Assembly (NCBI GenBank): GCA_963733035.1
Contig: CAVTBU010000007.1
Location: 687,710-751,709, forward strand
From: Pirellulales bacterium
GTDB taxonomy: Bacteria; Planctomycetota; Planctomycetia; Pirellulales; PALSA-1355
Length of the DNA stretch: 64,000 bases
Direction of reading: 5' to 3'
The notes below the pieces were generated by a model that did not search any database, had not been told where the DNA came from, and saw only the letters and a list, made by a program, of their open reading frames with translations. The position numbers were made by a program, and so were the translations under genes. This document shows, piece after piece, positions 42,104 through 54,054 of the stretch (position 1 is its first letter; each line of letters begins with the position of its first letter).

Positions 42104-42186
42104 GGAGGGTAAGCGAATTGGCCAGCGGCCTGACTCGAAATCAGGTGCCCCGCAAGGGGTTGTGGGTTCGAATCCCATGCCCTCCG
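42104..42186 (+). tRNA. tRNA-Ser(CGA)
   Basis: Acceptor GGAGGGT/GCCCTCC plus discriminator G, anticodon arm CCTGA-CTCGAAA-TCAGG, long variable arm CCCC-GCAA-GGGG, GTTCGAATC T-loop. The D-arm looks one base short. Confidence 0.9.
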
Positions 42187-42202
42187 CTTTCGTAGAACTC
42201 GT

Positions 42203-42311: not shown

Positions 42312-42686
42312 CGATGGACGGCCGTGGACTTGCAAGAATGGCGTAGACGCCGACGCAGCGGATTTGTCCACACAGCGGTGGACGATCGCCAACGTTGACG
42401 GGCTGGATAACGGGGGCGCCGGCTGATATCGCAACTTCTTGGGACGATGCCGAGCCACTTAGGCATGGCGCGGGCTCGACCAACTGCCAACAACACTCGT
42501 CAATGTGATCGAAGCGCGGAAGTTTACCCGAATTATGCTCCGAACGGCGTTCCAAAGAACTGTCGATTTTTGCGAGTCTCACGCAGACATGAGTAAATGA
42601 CACTCAACCGCCGTCGGCACTCTCATTTCCGCCGGGGGGACGGACTCTGGATTGCAGACAACGACACGACTTTCGAGAATAGCTCC

Positions 42687-43415
42687 ATGGGAATTGAACT
42701 CGGTCGCATTAGTGCCATATTTCGTTATCCGATCAAATCGATGGCCGGTGAAAGGCTTGATTCCGCAAAAATGGGCTGGCATGGCATCGAAGGTGATCGG
42801 CGGTTGGCGTTTCGCCGACTTGCCGATCGCGGCGCGTTCCCCTGGTTAACAGCGAGCCGACTTCCCGAATTGCTTCTCTATCAGCCCTTCGGCCGCCAGG
42901 ACAAGACGGGGGAGCTGCTGCCGACCCACATCCGCACGCCCGACGGTAGGGAATACGGACTCACGGACAAAGCATTGCTAGAGGAAATCGCCACTCGTCA
43001 CCGAGGCGATGTGGAGCTGATGCAGCTTAGCCACGGCATCTTCGACGAGGCCGCAGTTTCCGCAATTGCCTCGGGGACGATACAGAGCATCGCGCGCGAA
43101 GCGGGCCACGTAGCCGATGTCCGTCGTTTCCGGGCGAACGTCGTGATCGACACCGCGGGCGCTCAGCCTTTCGAGGAAGATCGATGGGTGGGCAAGATCC
43201 TGGAATTTGGTTCCGAAGAGTCGGGTCCTGCCATCAGCGTCACCATGCGAGACAAGCGTTGCGTGATGATCAATCTCGACCCGGACACGGCCGAAGCAAA
43301 CGCCGAGGTAATGCAGACCGTAATCCGCATGAACGAAAATAACGCCGGCGTTTATGGGACCGTTGTCAGGACAGGGGAGCTTCGGGTCGGTCAGGTCGTA
43401 AGCTTGAGAGCGTAA
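42687..43415 (+). CDS. MOSC domain protein
   Basis: RYPIKSMAGE, GDR, RRFRANVV, ED.W, RC.MI, GVY..V...G.L.VG. Confidence 0.9.
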   Translation: MGIELGRISAIFRYPIKSMAGERLDSAKMGWHGIEGDRRLAFRRLADRGAFPWLTASRLPELLLYQPFGRQDKTGELLPTHIRTPDGREYGLTDKALLEEIATRHRGDVELMQLSHGIFDEAAVSAIASGTIQSIAREAGHVADVRRFRANVVIDTAGAQPFEEDRWVGKILEFGSEESGPAISVTMRDKRCVMINLDPDTAEANAEVMQTVIRMNENNAGVYGTVVRTGELRVGQVVSLRA

Positions 43416-43427
43416 CGGTTCCAGGTT

Positions 43428-43525
43428 CCGTCAAAGGCATGAGCATTTGACAAAGGCCAGAAGCGGTGTCGGAATATGGTGGTTTCCTCGTAGTCCAAGA
43501 GAACGGACTTAGAAAAGTCGGGACT
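43428..43525. repeat. res/hix-like site, copy B
   Basis: CCGTCAAAGGCA-TG-AGCATTTGACAA followed by about 30 bp alignable with 46187-46220, then TAGTCC...GGACTA. Confidence 0.55.
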
Positions 43526-43595
43526 AGAGGTTCAGTTCCCCGACCGCGGAATGGCGTTCGTACCGGCTGTCGCCATCGAAGGGCGGTTCGGGTGT

Positions 43596-44609
43596 CTAGT
43601 CTTCTCGGTCTTGGTTTTGAGCGAGAACACAGTCGCCCAATCGACCTTTGGTGCAAACGATAGTCACGGCCGAAACCGCAACGATCGGAACCAGCAGCGT
43701 AATCTCCGAAAGAACAAACACGCGGTCCGATTCCGACAGGAGCTGTCCTTGCAGTCCGAGTGAGTCGTTGTGTAGTCCGTGCATGGCGATTGCAATCAAA
43801 ATACTGCCGCCCACTCGGTTGAAGAAGAAAGCCATTATCACCGAAAGTCCGATCAATCGGACCGTAAAGATGCCAAATCCAAAAAAGAAGTACGCGGGAC
43901 CCTTCAGCAACAGGTCAGGCTTCGCTGGAATATGCCACAGCGACCAAAGCACACCTAGCCACATTGTGCCGATCATTGGTCCCATTGACCGTTGAAGCAA
44001 CGGCTGAGCGAAGCCTCGCCAGCCGGTTTCCTCGCCAACTGCTCCGCCGTCTAGGAACATCGCAACCAAAAACGAGGGCACGATCGCTATCGACAGGTCT
44101 CTCATACTCCAGACGTATTCCTTGTCGCTTAGCAATAGTCCGTTCAACACAGCAGTCGCGACCGACATCAAGGCAAATGCTCCGATGCAAATCCCCCACC
44201 ACCGCAATCCGTATCGCCAATCTATGTCGGCTCTCCAAGGCCGAAAGCGGGTAATCAGCTTTTTGAGACCTTTACGCTTCCAGGCCACAGCAGTGACAAC
44301 AACTGCGGCAAATGTTGGAGTCAGAGGCTGCAATACGACAAGCACGATGGACGGCAAAACACGGGGCACGGACCAGACGAGTTTGATTGCGGAGACATAA
44401 TCGGTCTTGAAGGGAAGTCCGGTGACAGTCAACGCTTCTGAGATTCGGGTATCGGCTTCGGCAACGACGAGCATCGCCATGACGAGTACTTCGCTCGCTA
44501 CCGCCAACGCGAAGAACCAGATTATCGGTCTGTTGGCAACCAGTCGGGTCAGCCATCCACTCGTCGCGGGAGAGTTTTCCATTCCTGTGCCCATTTCAAT
44601 GGCTCGCAT
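43596..44609 (-). CDS. CPBP (CAAX/Abi) family intramembrane metalloprotease
   Basis: EETGWRG, WSLWH, AMHGLHND, multi-TM. Start uncertain (44582-44708). Confidence 0.88.
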   Translation of the reverse strand: MRAIEMGTGMENSPATSGWLTRLVANRPIIWFFALAVASEVLVMAMLVVAEADTRISEALTVTGLPFKTDYVSAIKLVWSVPRVLPSIVLVVLQPLTPTFAAVVVTAVAWKRKGLKKLITRFRPWRADIDWRYGLRWWGICIGAFALMSVATAVLNGLLLSDKEYVWSMRDLSIAIVPSFLVAMFLDGGAVGEETGWRGFAQPLLQRSMGPMIGTMWLGVLWSLWHIPAKPDLLLKGPAYFFFGFGIFTVRLIGLSVIMAFFFNRVGGSILIAIAMHGLHNDSLGLQGQLLSESDRVFVLSEITLLVPIVAVSAVTIVCTKGRLGDCVLAQNQDRED

Positions 44610-44668
44610 ATTGGCCGTTGACGAGAATAGTTCGGCGACAACAAGGCGTTTTCGTTCCCCCGCCGGGC

Positions 44669-45883
44669 TCATTGACACGTATTCTCGGAACCAGGCCAGC
44701 TTGGCCATCCATACACTTCGGCAATTGCATTGAGCACCTCTCGCACAAGCTGACCACCTGTGTCTGAGTTGGTCATGACGACTGCTCCCTGTCCACGGTC
44801 TAAATATCCAACGAATTTGCAGACGAAGCCATCGTCTCCACCGTCGTGTTCAAAATACCGCGAGCTCCCCACCTCGTGTACGAATGGCCCGAGGCCGATT
44901 GGACCATCCGCCCCTTCTGCTTGCTTCGTGAGCATTTGCTTGACCATATTCTGCGAAAGCACTTTTTGCGACTTGCCCTCGTGTGTCAATTGAATCTCGA
45001 TCACGTACCGTGCTAAATCCGACGGCGTCGACCATAACCCGGCAGCGGCCATTTCGGGATAGACGTGCCAGCGACCGGAAACGGCTTTGCCAGATGGCCG
45101 ATAGCCAGTTGCGGCAGTCGATTCTAGTTCGTGCGGGAGAGGTTGTTGATAGGTGCTCGAAGTCATTTCCAAGGGCCTGAGCACCGTGTCGTGAAGCAAA
45201 TTAGGGAACGGCCGGCCGGTCACGTCGACAAGCAATTGCTGCATGACGGTCGTGCCGCCACCGGAATAGCGATAGTCTCGACCAGGCGTGCGGACAACTC
45301 GCACGGGTGCCGAATTGGCCGGCTTTGAACCATCCAGGATTTGAGGCACTGTTGGGAGCGACGTCCCCACGGCGTATCCAGAGAAGCCTTGCACGCTGAG
45401 GCCGGCGGTATGGCTCAATAGACCACGCAGCTCTACAGGATGCTGACGAGTGAATTCGTTTTCGGGCACCTTCCAGGCCTTGAGCCATCGATTGACATCT
45501 CCGTCGAGGTCGAGCACGCCTTGCTCAACAAGCCGCAGCGCGGCCAGTGCCGCGACCGGTTTGCTGACAGACCCGGCCTGAAAGAGCGTTTTGATAGTCA
45601 CGGGACGTTCATCCGCTACGTCGGCCAGACCGTAGCCCTTTGCCCACTCGATTCGATATTGTGTGATGACAGCCACACTTAAGCCGGGGACACGAATATC
45701 TCGCAGCCGTTCAGCAATAGTGTGAGGGGAGCCGTCTTGGCTCTGGGTCGCTGGAATCAGGCTACGTTCAACGGTTGCTATCCGCTGGGCGGTGCCACTC
45801 GGAAGCTCAGCTCCGAAGATAGAATCTGCAAGCCGAAAACAAATCAGTGAACAAACGAAGATGGGTCTATATAGCAATGACAT
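44669..45883 (-). CDS. Serine hydrolase, beta-lactamase class C-like
   Basis: FQAGSVSK (SxxK), LLSHTAG, YRYSGGG, HDG; probable signal peptide. Confidence 0.9.
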   Translation of the reverse strand: MSLLYRPIFVCSLICFRLADSIFGAELPSGTAQRIATVERSLIPATQSQDGSPHTIAERLRDIRVPGLSVAVITQYRIEWAKGYGLADVADERPVTIKTLFQAGSVSKPVAALAALRLVEQGVLDLDGDVNRWLKAWKVPENEFTRQHPVELRGLLSHTAGLSVQGFSGYAVGTSLPTVPQILDGSKPANSAPVRVVRTPGRDYRYSGGGTTVMQQLLVDVTGRPFPNLLHDTVLRPLEMTSSTYQQPLPHELESTAATGYRPSGKAVSGRWHVYPEMAAAGLWSTPSDLARYVIEIQLTHEGKSQKVLSQNMVKQMLTKQAEGADGPIGLGPFVHEVGSSRYFEHDGGDDGFVCKFVGYLDRGQGAVVMTNSDTGGQLVREVLNAIAEVYGWPSWPGSENTCQ

Positions 45884-46160
45884 CCGAAGTTGCTCCAGCC
45901 ATTTGAGTAGACTTTCCGCCCTAGTGACAAGCAAATCGCTGAGCACACTACGTCGAAAAGTCCCACAAACCACACGCAAGCCGCGGCCGCAGTTCGTAAG
46001 TGTTTGAACGAGTGACACGATTATCGCAGCGACGAACTGCCGGTCCAACTACACAGCCCACGTTCTGACAGCGGTGGCGTGTTCGACTTGGCAAAAATCC
46101 TTGGTTTGTCGGCACCGCCAACCGGACGATTCGCCCAAGAAACGCGACAAGCCAGCATTC

Positions 46161-46220
46161 TTATCAAAGGCATGAGTTTCCGGTAGGCCCAGGGGCGTGT
46201 CAGGAATCGGATTGGTTTAT
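46161..46220. repeat. res/hix-like site, copy C, overlapping the resolvase stop codon
   Basis: TTATCAAAGGCA-TG-AGTTTCCGGTAG shares an exact 13-mer (TCAAAGGCATGAG) and downstream similarity with copy B. Confidence 0.55.
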
Positions 46221-46826
46221 GGCGTTTGATGGGCCGTTTCTTTCGATTCCGACGTAGCGGTACAGCGTACTCTTCGAGATCTTTAAAGTTGCACAGATGT
46301 CGTCAAGGCTGATGGACTTGTCGTTGAAGAGCTTGTTGGCAAGTACGATCCGTCGGTCATCGGCCATTATCGGTGGTCGGCCGCCTTTTCGGCCTCTGGC
46401 GCGGGCGGCAGCCAGTCCAGCATTGGTCCGCTCTTGAATGAGACGGCGCTCGAATTGTGCCAGCGCCGAAAAGACAAGAAAGATCAACTCGCCTGAAGGT
46501 GTGGTCGTGTCAATCGCGCCGTCGCAGACCGAGCGGAAGCCAATCTGGCGATCGCGCAACTCATCGATCAGCTTCACGAGGTGGCGTACTGATCGGCCAA
46601 GCCGATCCAGTCGCCAGACGAGCAAGACATCACCCTCGCGAAGCTGCGCGAGGCAAGTATCGAGTCCGGGACGTTGGTGTTTTGCGCCCGAGGCCTTGTC
46701 GGTGAAGATCAGTTCCTTGGCGACGCCGTACTTCAAAAGAGCGTCGATTTGGAGCGCCAGGTCTTGATCCTGGGTACTGACGCGGGCATACCCGACAAGG
46801 CGAGCGCCGTCGGATGCGGCGATCAT
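46200..46826 (-). CDS. Small serine recombinase (resolvase/invertase, Pin/Hin-like)
   Basis: GYARVSTQDQ, VWRLDRLGRS, ERTNAGL.AARARGR.GGRP, C-terminal HTH ISKSTLYRY. Confidence 0.95.
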   Translation of the reverse strand: MIAASDGARLVGYARVSTQDQDLALQIDALLKYGVAKELIFTDKASGAKHQRPGLDTCLAQLREGDVLLVWRLDRLGRSVRHLVKLIDELRDRQIGFRSVCDGAIDTTTPSGELIFLVFSALAQFERRLIQERTNAGLAAARARGRKGGRPPIMADDRRIVLANKLFNDKSISLDDICATLKISKSTLYRYVGIERNGPSNAINQSDS

Positions 46827-47222
46827 GGGATTGCTCTGTTGTCAGCCTTGATTTGTGTCTGTTATTTCGACGCCGAAAGCCAGCCCATAGTTCCCAGACG
46901 CCGCTCCTTCAATTGATAGGGGCCTTTTGAGGATGGGTGATTAAATCGGATTCTCAAGAATCAAGGCGGTCCGCACGAGTTCTTGGGACTCAAAGTGCCG
47001 GTTACCTGATTCGGCAAGGATGGACCACCATTCGTTTTCACGCACCACTACCTGGCACGCAGGCAACCGTCCGTCTAAATGGCGGAGTTGCCGGCCTCAA
47101 GGCTCCGAGCACCCCGTGAGCGAGGGATACGGCATGGCCTCAAAGAATGCCTGCGTCTAAAGCCTTCATGAATCGGCTCTCGCCAATCGGTCCATCCCCT
47201 AAAATCGCAATGTAAAAACATT

Positions 47223-48713
47223 CTAGTGGCTGGGGTCACTTTTACGTAATTTGGCAATTCGCTCTGTCACTGACTTAATTCCACTTATTTCCTGCGGTGA
47301 TTTTGCCTTTGCGGCAAGGTCTTTAATCGCCCCTTCCGCTAAATCGATCGATTTGTTCGCAGCATCGAGCGCCCCTAATGCCTGCTGACTTTCGGCAATG
47401 TCGAGCCTCAAGCTCGCAGACGTCGGGTACAGCGTCAGCAATTCCTCATTCAATTCAATCGCCTGCTTGTGCTGGCCATCTTGCCGCAGTTCCGTTGCCA
47501 GAAATGCGGTTGCCTCTTTCCATTCCTCACTGGCGGCATCGGCTTCGGCGCGAAAGTCGCGCCAGGCAGCAATTTTCTGGGCTGGCTTGCCGCATGTTGA
47601 CACGAGTTGCGCCTTCCGCCAGAGCAATTGTTGGCGCTCGGTAGCCTGGCCCGCTGCGTCGTGTATTCGACGGTCATAGCTCTCGATCGCTTTTTCAACG
47701 GCGCCGAGGTTAGCAAGCTCGCCGGCCTCCATTTCGAGCACCTTCTCGCGATCTTGTTTCGAGATTTGCGGGTCGTTCAGCAGCTGTCGCGAATCCTCCA
47801 ATGCCTTTTCCCACTGCTGATCCCATTCCAAATAAACATGACGGGCGATCTTCAGGCGCCAGCGAACCGATTGATCCTTCACGTTCGGCAATGCCACTTC
47901 GATATAGGCGATTGCCGCAGGCCAGTTCTTATCCGCATTGAAGCGTTCTAGTTCCTTGGCGGCCAATGCCCATTCCCGCTCGTGCCATCTCTTGCGGGCA
48001 ACGACGCGATCATCATAGGCCTTCCTCAAGCCAGACGCATTATTCGCATCGAGTCGTTGGATTTCGCCGACGACGTCTCCGTAGAATACGAGCACAAAGT
48101 CATCGTCGTGTTCATCGAGCGTCCCGAGCAGCGGGCTCACAGCTTGAATTGCGGCGTGCAATTTCTGGGCGCGGGCAAGGCCCGTCAATTTTGCCGCATG
48201 GGAAAGCTCGCTATCACGAACCTCCCGAGCTGTTCGGAATGAACTCAGATTCTCAAGAAACTTCGACGCCGTGATGCCTTTTTCATAGCCCGTATACGCA
48301 TAAGGCCGGCCGCCGGAATCAACAATGACTACGGTCGGAATCCCTTGAACTTGATATTGCTTTTTCCATGCTGCATACAGGCTTTTCAGGTCCGTAGTTG
48401 GCTCGTCGTCTGCGGATGGAAAATCTAATTCAACGAGCACAAAGTTCTTTGCGGCGGCCGCGAATTCAGCATGGCTAAAAACCGCACGATCGAGAAGAGT
48501 GCAGTAGTAGCACCAACCATGACCCGTGAAATTGATCAGAATGTCTTTTTTCTGATCAACTGCAATCTTCTTCGCCACATCCAGGTTGTTGACCCATTTA
48601 ATTGTTGGCTCGTCGGCACGGGCGGGGGTGAGAGCCAAAGCGATACCAATGAGTAGCACCGCACAAAACCCGTTCGTTCGCCTGATTTCCACTTTCGAGT
48701 CTCCTGCCGACAA
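47223..48713 (-). CDS. Secreted thioredoxin-fold protein with helical/TPR-like C-terminus
   Basis: Signal peptide, FTGHGWCYYC, LVELDFP, GIPT; helical repeats. Visibly more AT-rich than the backbone. Start may be GTG 48692. Confidence 0.8.
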   Translation of the reverse strand: MSAGDSKVEIRRTNGFCAVLLIGIALALTPARADEPTIKWVNNLDVAKKIAVDQKKDILINFTGHGWCYYCTLLDRAVFSHAEFAAAAKNFVLVELDFPSADDEPTTDLKSLYAAWKKQYQVQGIPTVVIVDSGGRPYAYTGYEKGITASKFLENLSSFRTAREVRDSELSHAAKLTGLARAQKLHAAIQAVSPLLGTLDEHDDDFVLVFYGDVVGEIQRLDANNASGLRKAYDDRVVARKRWHEREWALAAKELERFNADKNWPAAIAYIEVALPNVKDQSVRWRLKIARHVYLEWDQQWEKALEDSRQLLNDPQISKQDREKVLEMEAGELANLGAVEKAIESYDRRIHDAAGQATERQQLLWRKAQLVSTCGKPAQKIAAWRDFRAEADAASEEWKEATAFLATELRQDGQHKQAIELNEELLTLYPTSASLRLDIAESQQALGALDAANKSIDLAEGAIKDLAAKAKSPQEISGIKSVTERIAKLRKSDPSH

Positions 48714-49203
48714 TCAAGAGCACGGAAGGTGCCCGAGCCGACATTTTCGATATGAGGTCAGCGTAAAACCGATCCCGACTCGGAACCCTCGTCATCTTAA
48801 CATACCACCCTGCTCCCGCGTCTAACGCGTGGTGCACTTTTCCACCTTTGCGCCCGAGGTCCGTTTGCTGGCTTTCGCTACCGGAAGCGTCATCCGCCAT
48901 GGTACTTGTCGGTGGGCTTAGATTTGGGCTTTCCCGGGCGCGGCTGTGTCGCAAAAACCGTTGGGTTTCCGGGCCATCCCCCAGCATCGGCGCTCCGCGG
49001 CGTTGTTTCCGATCGTGCCAGTCCAGGAAGCTCATCTCAGAAAACAAAGTCCCAAAAAACGTCGAACTCGGCGATTGACGGGACATCGAATCAGCCGCCA
49101 TAGCGGGCCAGACGTTTTGCAGATCAACCAACACGGATGTCGGTTGCGTTAGACCGACACGCTCGGGCTTTAGCCGGGATCCGGTCGCATGACAACGCTT
49201 GTG

Positions 49204-50361
49204 CTATGCCCGACGCCTCGAGCTCGCACGCTTTCGCGACGGCTGCATCATTGCGTCCAACTTACTGGCCGCTTCGAGCTGCATCGTTGGCACGACGTGG
49301 GAGTACGTGTCGAGCGTGATGCCGATTTGCGAGTGGCCAAGGCGTTCCTGAACGACCTTGGGGTGGACGCCGGCGGTGAGCAAGAGCGTAGCGGAGGTGT
49401 GCCGCAGGTCGTGAAAGCGGATGGCCGGCAGATCGGCCGAGGCGAGTAGCGGCTTGAAATGATTCACGTGGAAGTGGGTGCGCCGCAACGGGCCGCCCGT
49501 GGAATTGCAGAAGACCCACGTCTGTTTGGCGAAGCCTTCGCGCACCGATTGGGCCCGATGTTTCGTGAGGGCTTCGACCACGAACTGCGGCAGATCGACG
49601 CGCCGACGGCTCTTGGGCGTCTTGGGTTCGGCCAGGGAGAGCTTGCCGTTGATCTCGATCAGCGTGCTGCGGACGTTGATCGCGCGGCCCTTGAGGTCGA
49701 CGTCGGGCCACTGTAGCCCGAAGATCTCGCCCAGTCGCATCCCGGTTCCGATCGCCACGACGTACAGGGCGTGAAGGCGGTCGCCCTTGGCGGCCTCCAG
49801 GAGTTTTTGGGCCTGCTCCGCTGCGAGCGGCGCGATCTGGCGTTTGGGCACGCGCGGCGGATCAATCGCGTCACAGGGGTTGCGGGCAATCAAACCCCAG
49901 CGGAGCGCCTGTTTGAGAGCCCGGCGCAAAACGGCGTGAGTCAACTGGCGAACTCTGGGGCCAACGCCGTCCCGTTCCATATCGGCGTAGAGCCGCTGGA
50001 TGTGGACGGGGTTCAGGATGGCCAGGGTGGTGCCGCCGATCCGGGGATCGATGTGGTTCTTGATGATGCCTTTGTAGCTGTAGTAGGTCGTCTGGCGGAC
50101 CGACGGGCGGGCAGCATCCTCGACCCAGCGTTCCAGGAGGGTCGACAGTCGCATGCGGCTGGGCTCGACGAACGTGCCGTCCATCCGCGTCGCCTGGACC
50201 TTGCTCAGCTTCTTGGCGACCTCGTCCTTGGTGACGCCGAAGATCGTCTTGCGGATCCGCTTGCCGTTGGCTGCGTAGCCGGCACTATAGGTGGCACACC
50301 AGGTGCCGTCGGTCCGCTGGTAAATTGACCCTTCCCCACGTCCGCGCCGCGCGCGTGGCAT
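49204..50361 (-). CDS. Tyrosine integrase
   Basis: RGRGEGSIYQR arm domain, TGMRLGE, PKT, FHDLRHT, LGHS, TLDTYSH. Confidence 0.95.
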   Translation of the reverse strand: MPRARRGRGEGSIYQRTDGTWCATYSAGYAANGKRIRKTIFGVTKDEVAKKLSKVQATRMDGTFVEPSRMRLSTLLERWVEDAARPSVRQTTYYSYKGIIKNHIDPRIGGTTLAILNPVHIQRLYADMERDGVGPRVRQLTHAVLRRALKQALRWGLIARNPCDAIDPPRVPKRQIAPLAAEQAQKLLEAAKGDRLHALYVVAIGTGMRLGEIFGLQWPDVDLKGRAINVRSTLIEINGKLSLAEPKTPKSRRRVDLPQFVVEALTKHRAQSVREGFAKQTWVFCNSTGGPLRRTHFHVNHFKPLLASADLPAIRFHDLRHTSATLLLTAGVHPKVVQERLGHSQIGITLDTYSHVVPTMQLEAASKLDAMMQPSRKRASSRRRA

Positions 50362-50364
50362 TCC

Positions 50365-51315
50365 TCAATCCTCCCCAAGCCATTTTTTGATGGTGGGCAT
50401 ATCCGAGCCCGTTGCCTTGGCGATCTCTCGCAATGTTTTGCCCGATGCCCGCATTTCCGCGGCCTGCTTCTGACGGCGGCGAAGGGCCCGGCTGCGACAA
50501 GCATCGGAGCAGTACCGCCGGTCTGCCCGGTTTACGTCGGGCGACATCTCCATCGCCCGGCCGCAGACTTCGCAAGCTCGATAGCTCTTTTGACCCGCGA
50601 TCGAAGCGGCAAACTGGAACCAGAGGGCGCCCAGCAGGTTGTGCGGTACGGTGACGAGCTGAAAATGCCCGTTCGGCCGATCCAGCATCGTTTGCGCGCC
50701 CAGCACGGACAGCCGCGTATTGATCGCCTGCACCAAGTACGATTGGGCGGCTCGTAGCGGAGTCCCCTGGTGCCCGACGCCGTAGTCTCCCGTCTCAAGG
50801 GATACCTCGTCGCCAGTATGCTTGCCGATCCGCTGCCGTTTCCACAGCCATGGCGAGTACTGCAGAACCGTGTCGCCAAACGGGTAATGAACGAGCCCCT
50901 CTTTGTCGGCCTTGAAGTGCTCTTCGATGATCCCACTTCGCTTGCCGGCACGCACGGCGTCCCAAACCTCGATCAGGAAGCGCATCGTGCGAACCTCGAA
51001 CTCCCACTCCTCGAACCGCTCCCGGTCCTCTTTCCAGAGGAGGCCATAGCAGTGCACAAACTCGAGAACCTGCTCCGGGGTCGGTTCCATCGCCGCGAAG
51101 TTGCGGAATAGGGCCGGATCCTCCTGCGTGGGCACGACATGCCGGCGGTCCATCAGTTCGGGACGCTTGGCAATCAAGACCAGGCGGGGCGTATCTTCGC
51201 CCTGGGGATTCCAGGGCGGCCGGATGCGGCGCGCGTAGCGCTTCTGATCGGTGGCAATCAGCCAGGTGTATCCCTGGCCGTCAACGAAAGCGTCGTAGCT
51301 GGTCAAGTCGGTCAT
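50365..51315 (-). CDS. Hypothetical regulator with CGNR-like zinc finger and C-terminal HTH
   Basis: CEVCG...RRYCSDACR then GKTLREIAKATG..MPTIKKWL. Stop lies 3 bp from the integrase start. Confidence 0.7.
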   Translation of the reverse strand: MTDLTSYDAFVDGQGYTWLIATDQKRYARRIRPPWNPQGEDTPRLVLIAKRPELMDRRHVVPTQEDPALFRNFAAMEPTPEQVLEFVHCYGLLWKEDRERFEEWEFEVRTMRFLIEVWDAVRAGKRSGIIEEHFKADKEGLVHYPFGDTVLQYSPWLWKRQRIGKHTGDEVSLETGDYGVGHQGTPLRAAQSYLVQAINTRLSVLGAQTMLDRPNGHFQLVTVPHNLLGALWFQFAASIAGQKSYRACEVCGRAMEMSPDVNRADRRYCSDACRSRALRRRQKQAAEMRASGKTLREIAKATGSDMPTIKKWLGED

Positions 51316-51453
51316 GTGGGTACTCCAGGTACGTCACGGATATATTACGGATAACCGTGTTGAACGTCAAGGAGACGCCAATACAATTATTTTCGTGGTA
51401 GCCGTGATGGCGCCACGGCACACAGGACGCCCCAGTACCCCGAGAAGGAAGCC

Positions 51454-51654
51454 ATGAGCACCGCCAAGTTGTCCGCCGAAAGCCAGTTGATCCGCGTCAC
51501 TGAAGTCGCCCGTCATCTGAGCCTCAGCCGCAGCAAGATCTACCAGATGATGGATCGTGGAGAATTGCCCTACGTGAAACTCGGCAAGAGCCGCCGGGTC
51601 CGCTGGCCCGACGTCGAGCGGCTCGTTGAGCAGAACACGATCTCCCGGTCGTAG
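51454..51654 (+). CDS. Excisionase/AlpA-like HTH protein
   Basis: LIRVTEVARHLSLSRSKIYQMM..GELP.VKLG.SRRV; AAGGA RBS. Confidence 0.88.
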   Translation: MSTAKLSAESQLIRVTEVARHLSLSRSKIYQMMDRGELPYVKLGKSRRVRWPDVERLVEQNTISRS

Positions 51655-51732
51655 CCGCAGCCGACCATCCTGCGCGTGCTCCGCCATGCCGGCACGCGAT
51701 CCCTTTTCGGCTGTAGCTTGGGAGTCCCTTGC

Positions 51733-54054
51733 ATGGATGATGCACCCCGGGAAGATCATCGAAGTGACCAGAACGGCCCTTTGAGGCTGGCGGCGGAGCG
51801 TTATGCGCACCGGGGCTGGTCCGTCATTCCGATTCCCCACCGGAGCAAGAACCCAGGCTTCGATGGGTGGCAGCGGCTTCGCCTGACGACGAAGTCAATC
51901 CGCGACCACTTCAACGGCCAGCCCCAGAACATCGGCGTGCTGCTGGGCGAGCCCTCGGGCTGGCTTGTCGACGTCGACCTCGATCATCCGCGGGCCGTAG
52001 AACTGGCGGCCCAGTTTCTGCCGCCGACGCCGGCCGTTTTCGGACGAGCAGGTAAGGAGCGATCTCACTGGCTCTACCGGGCGAATGGGCGGGTTGCGAC
52101 CAAGAAGCACAGAAGCAAGTCGGCCGGCATGATCGTTGAGCTGCGATCGACGGGCGCACAGACGGTCTTACCGCCCAGCACGCACGAGAGCGGCGAGGCC
52201 ATTGCCTGGGTGGACGAGACAGCGGAGCCAGCATCGGTCGATCCCGATGAGCTGCTCGAGTGCGTCAAACGGCTGGCAGATGCGGTGCGTGTGGAATTGG
52301 GCGAGAAACGAGCCGCCGCTAGGAAAAAACGTGCCAAGACTCCCCCAGCCGAACTGCCGTCAACCAGCCCCGTCGAATCTACGGACAAGGCGTCACGTTG
52401 CTTGGCGGCCATGCTGCGGATCACTATTCAAGACCACCGTGATGGATCGCATCGGCTGTTTGTGTGCGCCTGCCGGGCCGTCGAGCATGATTTGGACGAC
52501 GCTACAGCGCTTGCCACGATCAGCCAGTACGCAAGTCAGCGGCCGTTTCCGCGTGGCTGGACCGACCAGGAAATCCTCCAGCGGCTGCGTGACGCTAAGA
52601 AACAATGTCGCCGAGGTGCGGCGCTGCAACTCGACGCTGAGGGCTGTGTGCCGCTCGGCCAGCGGGATCCACAAACCGGCAAATTGGTGCTCTCGCCAAG
52701 ACGCACCCTGCCCACGGCAGACGCCTACGTCCGAGATTTCCATCTCCATCCAGACATCCGTATGCTCCACTGCTACGCCGGCATGCTCATGGCCTGGCAC
52801 AACAACCGTTACGTGGAGATTGAGGACAATGCCGTCAAGAAGGACCTGCAGGCCTGGCTGCACGACTCGCTTCGCTACATTCTCAACCGCCAAACCGGGG
52901 AACTTGAGCTGGTGCAGTACGACTCGAACCCGAGCACGGTCAATGCGGCCCTCGACTCGATTCGCGCCTTTGCACACTTGCCTGTGACCGTTACTTCGCC
53001 ATCCTGGCTCGATGAGGGTGCTGATCGACCGCCGGCCAACGAGATCCTGTCTTGTCGCTCAGCGCTGGTGCATCTGCCTTCGATGCGACAACTTCCGCCG
53101 ACGCCGCTGTTCTTCTCCGTCAACGCACTCGACTTCGACCTCGACCCGCGTGCTCCGGAGCCAATGGCGTGGCACGGCTTCCTGCACCAGCTTTTCGACG
53201 GAGATCTCGAGTCGCTCGAGCTGCTACAAGAATGGTTCGGCTACTGCCTTACCGGCGATACGTCCCAGCAGAAAATGATGCTTATCGTCGGGCCACGACG
53301 AAGCGGCAAGGGCACGATCGCCCGCGTGCTTAGCCGGCTGATCGGCATCGGCAACGTGTGTGGGCCCACTACTTCCAGCTTGGCCAGCCACTTCGGCCTG
53401 CAGCCTTTGATCGGCAAGACGCTGGCCATCGTCAGCGATGCCCGCTTCCACGGCGAGAACATCCCGATCGTGGTCGAACGCCTGCTATGCATCAGCGGCG
53501 AGGACTTGGCGACCGTGGATCGAAAGTTTCTCGGCAGCATCACGATGAAGCTGCCCACGCGGTTCATGTTCTTGACCAACGAACTACCCAGATTGACGGA
53601 TGCCAGCGGAGCCCTGGCCGGTCGCTTCGTAACGTTGCGTCTGACCGAGAGCTTCTACGGCAAGGAGGATACCGGTCTCACAGACCGTCTGCTGGATGAG
53701 CTTCCCGGTATTCTGAACTGGGCGATCGAAGGATGGCGTCGCCTGCACGAGCGGGGCCACTTCCTGATTCCGACGAGCGTGAAGGATGTTGTGCAGGAGA
53801 TCGAGGATCTCTCATCGCCTGTATCAGCATTCGTGCGCGACGAATGTGTTGTCGGGCCCGGACACCGCATTCCAGTGGACGATCTCTACGATGCGTGGCG
53901 GCGATGGTGCGAACAGGAAGGTCGACAGATCGTCACGACCAAGCAGACCTTTGGCCGAGATCTTGCTGCCGCTGTGGCCGGTGTTACACGTCGTCGCGGC
54001 ACCGCCATGCAGCCGTTCTACGAAGGAATCGCGCTGAAATGGTCTCAATCATGA
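51733..54054 (+). CDS. Bifunctional primase-polymerase fused to P4/D5-type SF3 helicase
   Basis: GWSVIP...K.P, NIG, VDVDLD, H.LY, TVLPPS.H (Prim-Pol); LQEWFGY, GPRRSGKGT Walker A, TNELP. GGAG RBS. Confidence 0.9.
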   Translation: MDDAPREDHRSDQNGPLRLAAERYAHRGWSVIPIPHRSKNPGFDGWQRLRLTTKSIRDHFNGQPQNIGVLLGEPSGWLVDVDLDHPRAVELAAQFLPPTPAVFGRAGKERSHWLYRANGRVATKKHRSKSAGMIVELRSTGAQTVLPPSTHESGEAIAWVDETAEPASVDPDELLECVKRLADAVRVELGEKRAAARKKRAKTPPAELPSTSPVESTDKASRCLAAMLRITIQDHRDGSHRLFVCACRAVEHDLDDATALATISQYASQRPFPRGWTDQEILQRLRDAKKQCRRGAALQLDAEGCVPLGQRDPQTGKLVLSPRRTLPTADAYVRDFHLHPDIRMLHCYAGMLMAWHNNRYVEIEDNAVKKDLQAWLHDSLRYILNRQTGELELVQYDSNPSTVNAALDSIRAFAHLPVTVTSPSWLDEGADRPPANEILSCRSALVHLPSMRQLPPTPLFFSVNALDFDLDPRAPEPMAWHGFLHQLFDGDLESLELLQEWFGYCLTGDTSQQKMMLIVGPRRSGKGTIARVLSRLIGIGNVCGPTTSSLASHFGLQPLIGKTLAIVSDARFHGENIPIVVERLLCISGEDLATVDRKFLGSITMKLPTRFMFLTNELPRLTDASGALAGRFVTLRLTESFYGKEDTGLTDRLLDELPGILNWAIEGWRRLHERGHFLIPTSVKDVVQEIEDLSSPVSAFVRDECVVGPGHRIPVDDLYDAWRRWCEQEGRQIVTTKQTFGRDLAAAVAGVTRRRGTAMQPFYEGIALKWSQS

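Follow-up and report, generated by a model that had tools for sequence, protein, structure and literature searches.

E3 elements linked to a Gin-like serine recombinase gene separate gene modules in a Pirellulales genomic island and may mark a new way of shuffling gene cassettes

A 64,000-nt region of the genome of a Pirellulales bacterium (contig CAVTBU010000007.1, positions 687,710–751,709; hereafter the window) contains an island in which, judged by sequence comparison, an element designated E3 stands between gene modules, as one full copy and three partial ones that all have the same orientation. E3 (~125 nt) includes three direct units of ~22 nt (U0, U1 and U2) and constitutes the conserved non-coding 3′ flank of a gene encoding a small serine recombinase. 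Related copies form a family that is linked to genes of this recombinase, builds arrays in other genomes, occurs in forms with and without the recombinase gene, and is associated with homology breakpoints at U-like motifs. In our estimation the chances are evenly divided that the modules are exchanged at E3/U sites by site-specific recombination, with the Gin-like recombinase as the likely, though unproven, enzyme.

The E3 family and its linkage to a recombinase gene

Domain analysis of the recombinase revealed a catalytic domain (PF00239, E=2.9e-49) followed by a C-terminal HTH_7 domain (PF02796, E=1.3e-5). Its closest relative of solved structure is the Gin invertase (PDB 4m6f; E=8e-45, residues 10–190), and in the alignment, which extends over Gin residues 2–177, Ser17 corresponds to the catalytic Ser9 of Gin. 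The protein also matches the Tn3 and γδ resolvases (E~1e-32 to 1e-34; 2e-34 for the Tn3 resolvase). By its domains and its catalytic serine it is predicted to be a small serine recombinase of the resolvase/invertase family; NCBIfam gave no match above any cut-off for it. Assignment to the IS607-type serine transposases was rejected, the catalytic domain preceding HTH_7 and the score with NF033518 being 36.7 bits, compared to a cut-off of 110.

Iterated hidden Markov model (HMM) searches over the fetched loci yielded 33 copies of E3, which were aligned. Many of them contain an inverted pair, GGCAC...GTGCC, between U1 and U2. The linkage of E3 to the recombinase gene was examined with R1, a sequence-only model of 25 copies (one being the window's own), in the 80 best loci encoding recombinase homologues (R1 E≤0.05; contigs ending at the gene were kept among the 80). 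In 17 of these loci, seven of which were absent from model building, an E3 match starts no more than ~320 nt past the end of the recombinase gene, and of the 34 E3 matches in the whole set, 32 have the same relative strand as the window copy. The order and orientation (recombinase, then E3) are kept across clades of 63–97% protein identity. One copy of the recombinase gene in a relative (G024:C21, L018 3298–4014) is apparently frameshifted, a 623-nt match being split into open reading frames (ORFs) of 141 and 174 aa. E3 without any recombinase gene was found in G012 (two loci), G205, G234 (two loci), G143 and G077.

The distribution of E3 was surveyed in 33 genomes of the window's family (R1, E≤0.01) and the element was detected in 20 of them, with 34 copies in G211, 21 in G019, 15 in G279, nine in G012, six in G023, and five each in G024 and G257. 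The arrays (G211, G019, G279, G257, G012 and G024) are same-orientation runs of E3 copies spaced by 1–5 kb, often with a single gene between them; the genes carried include dehydrogenases, hydrolases, PQQ propellers, a sulfatase and regulators. A close homologue of the recombinase was found in G279 and G211. Genes encoding PQQ_2 beta-propellers recur as E3-flanked modules (Table 1).

Partial E3 copies in tandem (model positions ~1–105 followed directly by ~62–127) recur in several genomes, and from their sequences they look as if two copies had been joined at U-type units. In G024, two different E3-like copies each have an insertion sequence (IS) of the IS66 family (tnpA/tnpB/tnpC, with an end starting GTAAGCG) placed precisely at their right end, which looks like an insertion hot spot.

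The view of E3 as a dispersed repeat of its own genome was rejected: BLAST finds one copy (as it does for the partner elements E1 and E4, described below), and the model adds one weak E3-like match on contig C6 (G000:C6:1054937–1055048; E=2.4e-4). A metagenome scan for the 21-mer core gave two matches, both apparently chance occurrences in coding DNA; their agreement with the window (22–26 nt) and with the model (28–34 nt) was limited to the core.

Sites and module boundaries in the window

A weight matrix for U1, built from 32 copies, none of which came from the window, was used to scan ~128,000 window positions. Six of the seven best matches fall within the cargo of the island (43338–48953), all six on the + strand (Table 1). 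The genome background is 149 matches scoring at least 11 in 13.28 million positions; outside E3, three cargo matches of at least 11 were obtained, compared to 0.073 expected (one strand, 6.5 kb; P~6e-5, or 5e-4 for both strands). The four best R1 matches in the window, obtained with filters off, are likewise all on the + strand and all in the cargo.

A preliminary description of this DNA had reported three same-orientation 26-mers with a CATGAG core, at 42578, 43428 and 46161 (sites 1, 2 and 3), as candidate related recombination sites. All three were found at these positions on the + strand, and the gene context given for them (a MOSC gene, a CPBP/Rce1-like protease with a hydrolase, and then the recombinase) proved correct, the recombinase stop codon lying 14 nt from site 3. 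Their relatedness was borne out for sites 2 and 3; site 1 sits in a separate conserved element, E1. The reported alignability of sites 2 and 3 over ~55 nt was reproduced by gapped local alignment (43431–43486 with 46164–46219, score 28), a score that random 241-nt pieces of the window attained in 5 of 2944 and 5 of 2950 cases. The exact 13-mer common to both sites, TCAAAGGCATGAG, occurs twice in the window and twice in the 6.6-Mb genome, in both cases in the island, and about one exact 13-mer repeat is expected by chance per 11 kb. The pair is missing from the 20 largest of the 59 direct repeat families found in a repeat search. Taken alone and post hoc, the similarity of the two sites is marginal; it is convincing only through the E3 family.

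Within that family, site 2 is a degenerate partial E3 copy running from U1 to U2. The resemblance to E3 begins at its U1, and the first HMM gave it an E value of 0.38, yet ranked it as the best non-self match in the genome. The idea that site 2 is a relic of a second recombinase gene was discarded: tblastn with the recombinase identified four places in the genome, none of them at 43.4–43.6 kb, and the alignment of sites 2 and 3 ends at the U2 motif, which counts against such a relic. Site 1, already regarded as the weakest of the three in the preliminary description, shares with the others just the hexamer CATGAG in register (ungapped identity 36/122 and 37/122), which occurs 10 times forward and nine times reverse in the window, 19 in all, and it is outside the top 25 U1 matrix matches of the window.

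The proposal that the sites are 26-bp dyads of the form 12-TG-12 was not supported, because conservation around U1 is asymmetric; sites 2 and 3 appear instead to be parts of the ~125-nt composite element. The hix-like left half of site 3 is confined to the window and the G024 copies, is not kept in the family, and was therefore treated as a coincidence. The more general claim, that related sites of one orientation separate unrelated modules beside a Hin/Gin-like recombinase, stood, and the series proved to be longer, reaching ~47045 and 48927.

The positions at which homology to related loci breaks off or resumes are listed in Table 1. U-like sites lie at the left and the right boundary of this island family's variable cargo. 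No breakpoint was observed at the central TG of site 3 (46173), where one had been predicted; those observed lie at element ends (U0, U2/J3 and J4). At U0, an X2 metagenome contig (record 7) is 100% identical to the window rightward from 46101 and has an unrelated left flank. The 844 bp between 46096 and 46939 occur with 93–94% identity at two different loci of G024, homology ending sharply on both sides, and in other clades (L036/L041 and L048/L051) units of 850–902 bp, composed of ~130 nt of upstream sequence, the recombinase gene and E3, are shared by contexts that are otherwise unrelated. G279 contains two copies of a PQQ-propeller module of 1449 bp (98.8% identity). At its right end the near-perfect identity extends no further than the centre of a U-like motif, beyond which the copies are only similar; at its left end it adjoins the right end of E3 in one copy and a recombinase-upstream junction in the other.

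Two further conserved elements are found on the right-hand side of E3-type ends. E1 has 8-bp inverted arms centred at 42589/42590 and is 87–89% identical in two other genomes (contig L061 and G002), L061 also carrying a recombinase gene of 89% identity. Elsewhere it lies 3′ of an E3-type right end (L019 near 10469, L048, L025 and an X5 contig). E4, which contains the palindrome GATTCT-CA-AGAATC, recurs in L061, G024:C21 and G023. In G205, G012:C2 and an X3 contig, E3 joins E4 directly, with no recombinase gene between them. Relative to these forms, the segment with the recombinase gene (~46215–46940) is an insertion between E3 and E4.

The array is located in a tRNA-Ser integrative island. The DNA from ~42.58 to 48.97 kb, with its four gene modules, is the low-GC (guanine plus cytosine) cargo of this island, the GC content being 0.54–0.57 between 42.5 and 49 kb, compared to 0.60–0.64 in the flanks. 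The 3′ part of the tRNA-Ser gene (from 42132), together with ~230–450 nt downstream of it, recurs with the tyrosine integrase in 41 relatives, and the islands recurring there carry different cargo around the same integrase, whose DNA is 80–86% identical among islands of different cargo. Examples of such cargo are an ars operon (G024:C25), genes for KaiC and a histidine kinase (G009) and a beta-lactamase-fold gene (G024:C11); none of these three islands carries a serine recombinase, and the tyrosine integrase is also found with islands that have no E3. Since the integrase and the tRNA gene recur around varied cargo, the array occupies the variable cargo slot of the island.

The island backbone (49204–54054) comprises the tyrosine integrase gene, an ORF of 316 aa of unknown function and a PrimPol/D5 helicase gene. 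Partial relatives of it, consisting of a tRNA 3′ half and integrase fragments, are present on contig C8 of the same genome (G000:C8:499577–503709). Among the cargo genes, the probable start codon of the MOSC gene is the ATG at 42688, which gives a product beginning MGIELGRISAIFRYPIKS; in the longer ORF, residue 36 is the first to be covered by the Pfam MOSC_N match. With this start, E1 would lie upstream of the gene and would not overlap it. The serine hydrolase scores 73.7 bits with the NCBIfam model of class C beta-lactamases, far below the cut-off of 415.

Table 1. Positions of genes, elements, matches and breakpoints in the window, and of E3-associated features in related loci
Feature	Position	Strand	Remarks
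U1 matrix match	5921		Score 12.5; beyond the island
tRNA-Ser (CGA)	42104..42187	+	Attachment side of the island
J1, U-like motif	42553..42575	+	Left edge of the variable cargo
E1	~42566..42618	+	Conserved element holding site 1 (42578–42603)
Breakpoint	42577		Homology to the G009 island ends; preceded by J1, with a clearer U-like motif at the same place in G009
Module 1: MOSC-domain gene	42597..43415	+	Likely true start 42688
U1 matrix match	43338–43360	+	Score 12.7; in MOSC coding sequence, 93 nt left of site 2; possibly chance
R1 match	43424–43485	+	E=0.013; site 2, partial E3; model positions 64–124 (U1, spacer, U2)
U1 matrix match	43431	+	Score 14.4; site 2; ranks second
Module 2	43596..46048	-	Two genes
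CPBP/Rce1-like intramembrane protease (module 2)	43596–44708	-	
Beta-lactamase-fold serine hydrolase (module 2)	44669–46048	-	
E3, full element	46095..46223	+	~125 nt; extends into the recombinase gene over its last codons and stop codon
U0	46093–46115	+	Direct unit of E3
U1	46164–46186	+	Direct unit of E3; site 3; best-conserved part
U2	46203–46225	+	Direct unit of E3
U1 matrix match	46093	+	Score 9.5; U0
R1 match	46095–46223	+	E=1e-24; full E3
Breakpoint	46095–46101		Inside U0; versus G024 and an X2 contig
U1 matrix match	46164	+	Score 27.1; U1 = site 3
Module 3: small serine recombinase	46200..46826	-	208 aa; Resolvase + HTH_7
U1 matrix match	46203	+	Score 11.4; U2
Breakpoint	~46214–46220		Versus E3 forms without the recombinase gene
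J4 + E4	46931..46995	+	E4 at 46940–46995; upstream of the recombinase gene
Breakpoint	46933–46945		G024 homology stops; G023 and X3 homology starts
R1 match	47045–47095	+	E=0.081; weak partial E3-like; model positions 42–92
Module 4: thioredoxin-like (DsbH-like) protein	47223..48713	-	496 aa
R1 match	48927–48972	+	E=0.27
Partial E3-like right end	48927..48975	+	U-like site at 48953; right edge of the cargo
Breakpoint	48948–48960		G024:C25 island homology resumes at 96% identity (from 48960), at a U-like site
U1 matrix match	48953	+	Score 13.1; new site, right cargo edge
Tyrosine integrase of the tRNA-Ser island	49204..50361	-	Backbone, outside the array
PrimPol/D5-type gene	51676–54054		PrimPol/D5 helicase
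Tandem partial E3 duplications	L018 9373–9527; L019 10469–10630; L133 3014–3177; L134 10403–10560; L136 9114–9278; L139 7478–7638		Other genomes
PQQ_2 beta-propeller modules	L061 770–2059; L137 15229–16683; L131 6061–7440; L128 6010–7383; L132 6018–7283		E3-flanked
IS66 insertions	L018 ~9527 (G024:C21); L019 ~2605 (G024:C20); L137 4857 (G279)		L137 insertion ~30 nt from an E3 copy

Proposed exchange of modules and rival explanations

In the proposed mechanism, the U units would be crossover sites for conservative site-specific recombination. Recombination between two directly repeated sites would release the module between them as a circle, which could re-enter at any other such site, and repeated exchange of this kind would build the arrays and mosaics found across related planctomycetes. 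The most likely catalyst would be the Gin-like recombinase, which is encoded against E3 and would thus carry its own site; its gene would itself behave as a module, a unit of ~0.85 kb moving with E3, and E1 and E4 would be alternative right-hand partners of E3. We infer that the breakpoints arise from site-specific recombination with this crossover position and this enzyme. A more ambitious formulation is that Pirellulales-type planctomycetes possess a counterpart of the integron cassette system that works with a Gin-like small serine recombinase in place of a tyrosine integrase, in which E3 is a double-stranded analogue of attC composed of direct U units, cassettes are excised and inserted at U centres, and the recombinase gene is itself one of the cassettes and founds new arrays at such places as tRNA-Ser islands. 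This formulation is tentative, and we regard it as rather doubtful.

Several observations weigh against the exchange of modules by the Gin-like recombinase. Regarding the sites, E3 has no clear dyad of the serine-recombinase type, the spacing between A-run and T-run is unequal among U0, U1 and U2, and of the two gix sites that phage SfMu possesses, a U0 matrix picks out just one, at rank 6 of ~12,200 positions; the likeness of E3 to gix is weak. Detection of the partial copies depended on the model and its settings: the iterated HMM lost site 2, and R1 with default filters reports the full copy only, neither site 2 nor the match at 48927. Regarding the enzyme, no recombinase homologue was found at E≤1e-10 in the array-bearing genomes G019 (21 copies) and G257 (5 copies), and G012 (9 copies) holds just a 49-residue fragment. 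Small serine recombinases acting with accessory sites normally favour deletion, not insertion. The orientation of E3 (read on the reverse strand) agrees with that of the upstream gene in 34 of 44 cases and of the downstream gene in 33 of 46, and a transcription-linked element would give the same pattern. Finally, the metagenome contigs showing breakpoints are single contigs of depth 2–4.5 that could be chimeric, and neither excision circles nor deletion alleles nor joints turned up in the short, low-depth X1, X2, X3 and X5 contigs, a result that is uninformative either way. None of the sequencing runs contains more than 0.19 of the sampled words.

Some of these points agree with an alternative in which another enzyme acts on real E3/U junctions, the Gin-like recombinase being a frequent passenger or a resolvase that uses E3 as its res site. 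Such an enzyme would account for the arrays of G019 and G257, for the location of most E3 copies away from any recombinase gene and for the lack of a clear dyad. However, scans of 70 and 74 ORFs beside the arrays showed no recurrence of any other recombinase family, revealing only IS66 elements and one large serine recombinase, and the recombinase-then-E3 arrangement is conserved across the clades as described above. Moreover, the assemblies are 70–96% complete and consist of hundreds of contigs, and may therefore miss the gene. On balance, this explanation seems unlikely.

It is also improbable, though it has to be considered seriously, that E3 is an intergenic regulatory or structural repeat (a promoter, an insulator, or a repeat resembling repetitive extragenic palindromes (REP) or miniature inverted-repeat transposable elements (MITE)) which attracts insertions, the mosaics having been formed through hot spots and homologous exchange. 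The predominant co-direction of E3 with its neighbours fits such a repeat, as do the start of a gene usually 20–300 nt downstream of E3, the IS66 insertions exactly at its right end (twice in G024, and ~30 nt away in G279) and copy numbers of up to 34 per genome, like those of dispersed repeats. Against this, the copies within a genome are diverged (20–60 bits), with no recent burst, and neither terminal inverted repeats nor target duplications were seen, nor a conserved RNA fold or an Rfam family. DNA of 98.8–100% identity breaks to unrelated DNA inside motifs of 22 nt, which are too short for efficient homologous exchange. The presence of a single full copy in the window's own genome also implies that E3 is no house-keeping signal.

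A third possibility, that E3 is a classical res site at which the recombinase only resolves cointegrates or multimers of its carrier, the partial copies being decayed remnants, is highly improbable. Known res sites measure roughly 90–130 bp, a length similar to that of E3; in addition, the protein matches the Tn3 and γδ resolvases well, and the one full copy in the window lies beside the gene. However, no Tn3-type transposase or plasmid backbone is present nearby, and the site lies 3′ of the gene, overlapping its end, and not upstream, with no three dyad subsites. Arrays around unrelated genes and gene-free E3|E4 forms would be left unexplained.

That the three sites resemble each other by chance is barely credible for sites 2 and 3, despite their marginal pairwise score, given the family-based scores, the clustering of matches and the fact that E3, E1 and E4 are all conserved elsewhere, in other genomes, although chance may still explain the inclusion of site 1, with its hexamer seen 19 times in the window, in the same site class.

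Comparison with known systems and significance

The recombinase resembles Hin, Gin, Pin and Cin, and Gin most closely, in the position of its catalytic serine (Ser17) and in its C-terminal HTH_7 domain, and the U0 core (A-run, short centre, T-run) is built like the gix sites of SfMu. However, the sites of Hin and Gin are inverted around an invertible segment, whereas E3 sites are direct. No invertible segment is present, and all E3/U matches in the island are on the + strand; because its sites are direct, the E3 system is not an inversion switch. Furthermore, the sites of the invertases are 26-bp dyads (12-2-12), whereas conservation around U1 of the composite element is asymmetric and gives no support to a dyad.

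Direct repeats imply deletion, as in the res sites of Tn3 and γδ. The resolvases of these transposons belong to the same protein superfamily, and E3, like res, is a multi-unit site beside the gene, ~125 nt long. In their case, however, res is located upstream and has three dyad subsites, whereas E3 lies 3′ of the gene, over its stop codon, is composed of direct units and is present in many copies arrayed around unrelated genes. No transposase gene lies between 38 and 54 kb of the window.

The arrays share with integrons, and with clusters of attC sites lacking integron integrases (CALIN), the same-orientation arrangement of mostly single-gene modules of 1–2 kb with repeats of ~125 nt between them, the existence of clusters without a recombinase gene, and the insertion of IS elements at the repeat. 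They differ in that E3 is linked to a serine recombinase, while IntI is a tyrosine recombinase. An identification of E3 with attC was rejected, since ten single-stranded folds of five E3 copies are no better than those of shuffled sequences (z from +0.69 to -1.85) and since the ends of E3 are direct repeats, not the inverted R″/R′ pair. The neighbouring tyrosine integrase is not an IntI (46.1 bits, compared to the cut-off of 265 for TIGR02249).

In the XerC/XerD-dependent pdif modules of Acinetobacter plasmids, gene modules likewise lie between short recombination sites and occur in varying contexts. The pdif sites are 28 bp long and alternate in orientation; E3 sites are longer, have one orientation and are linked to a serine recombinase.

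In length, intergenic location, copy number (up to 34 per genome) and orientation with transcription, E3 resembles REP elements and the bacterial interspersed mosaic elements (BIME), enterobacterial repetitive intergenic consensus (ERIC)-like repeats and MITE-like repeats. Unlike these, it has neither a palindromic fold nor terminal inverted repeats, its copies are diverged, it is tightly linked to one recombinase gene family, and it is located at homology breakpoints. The possibility of a structured RNA was examined and rejected: Rfam at E≤1 gave only the tRNA and two matches far below gathering scores, and the consensus folds of the two strands (-4.41 and -2.48 kcal/mol) have compensated changes in 2 of 13 and 3 of 11 pairs.

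In the literature accessible without subscription, no description of a serine-recombinase cassette array or of an E3-like repeat was found. To our knowledge, the ways in which bacteria collect and shuffle single genes are integrons and Xer/dif modules, both of which depend on tyrosine recombinases. The modules separated by E3 may represent a new way of shuffling gene cassettes. If the recombinase is shown to act on these sites, the system would be of a new kind. As a counterpart that uses a serine recombinase and a composite site in double-stranded form, it would mean that cassette genetics was invented independently in a phylum that has been little studied. The E3 model would then be a practical marker for arrays of accessory genes in planctomycete genomes and metagenomes, and the system might also yield a small recombinase with a natural insertion activity for genome engineering.

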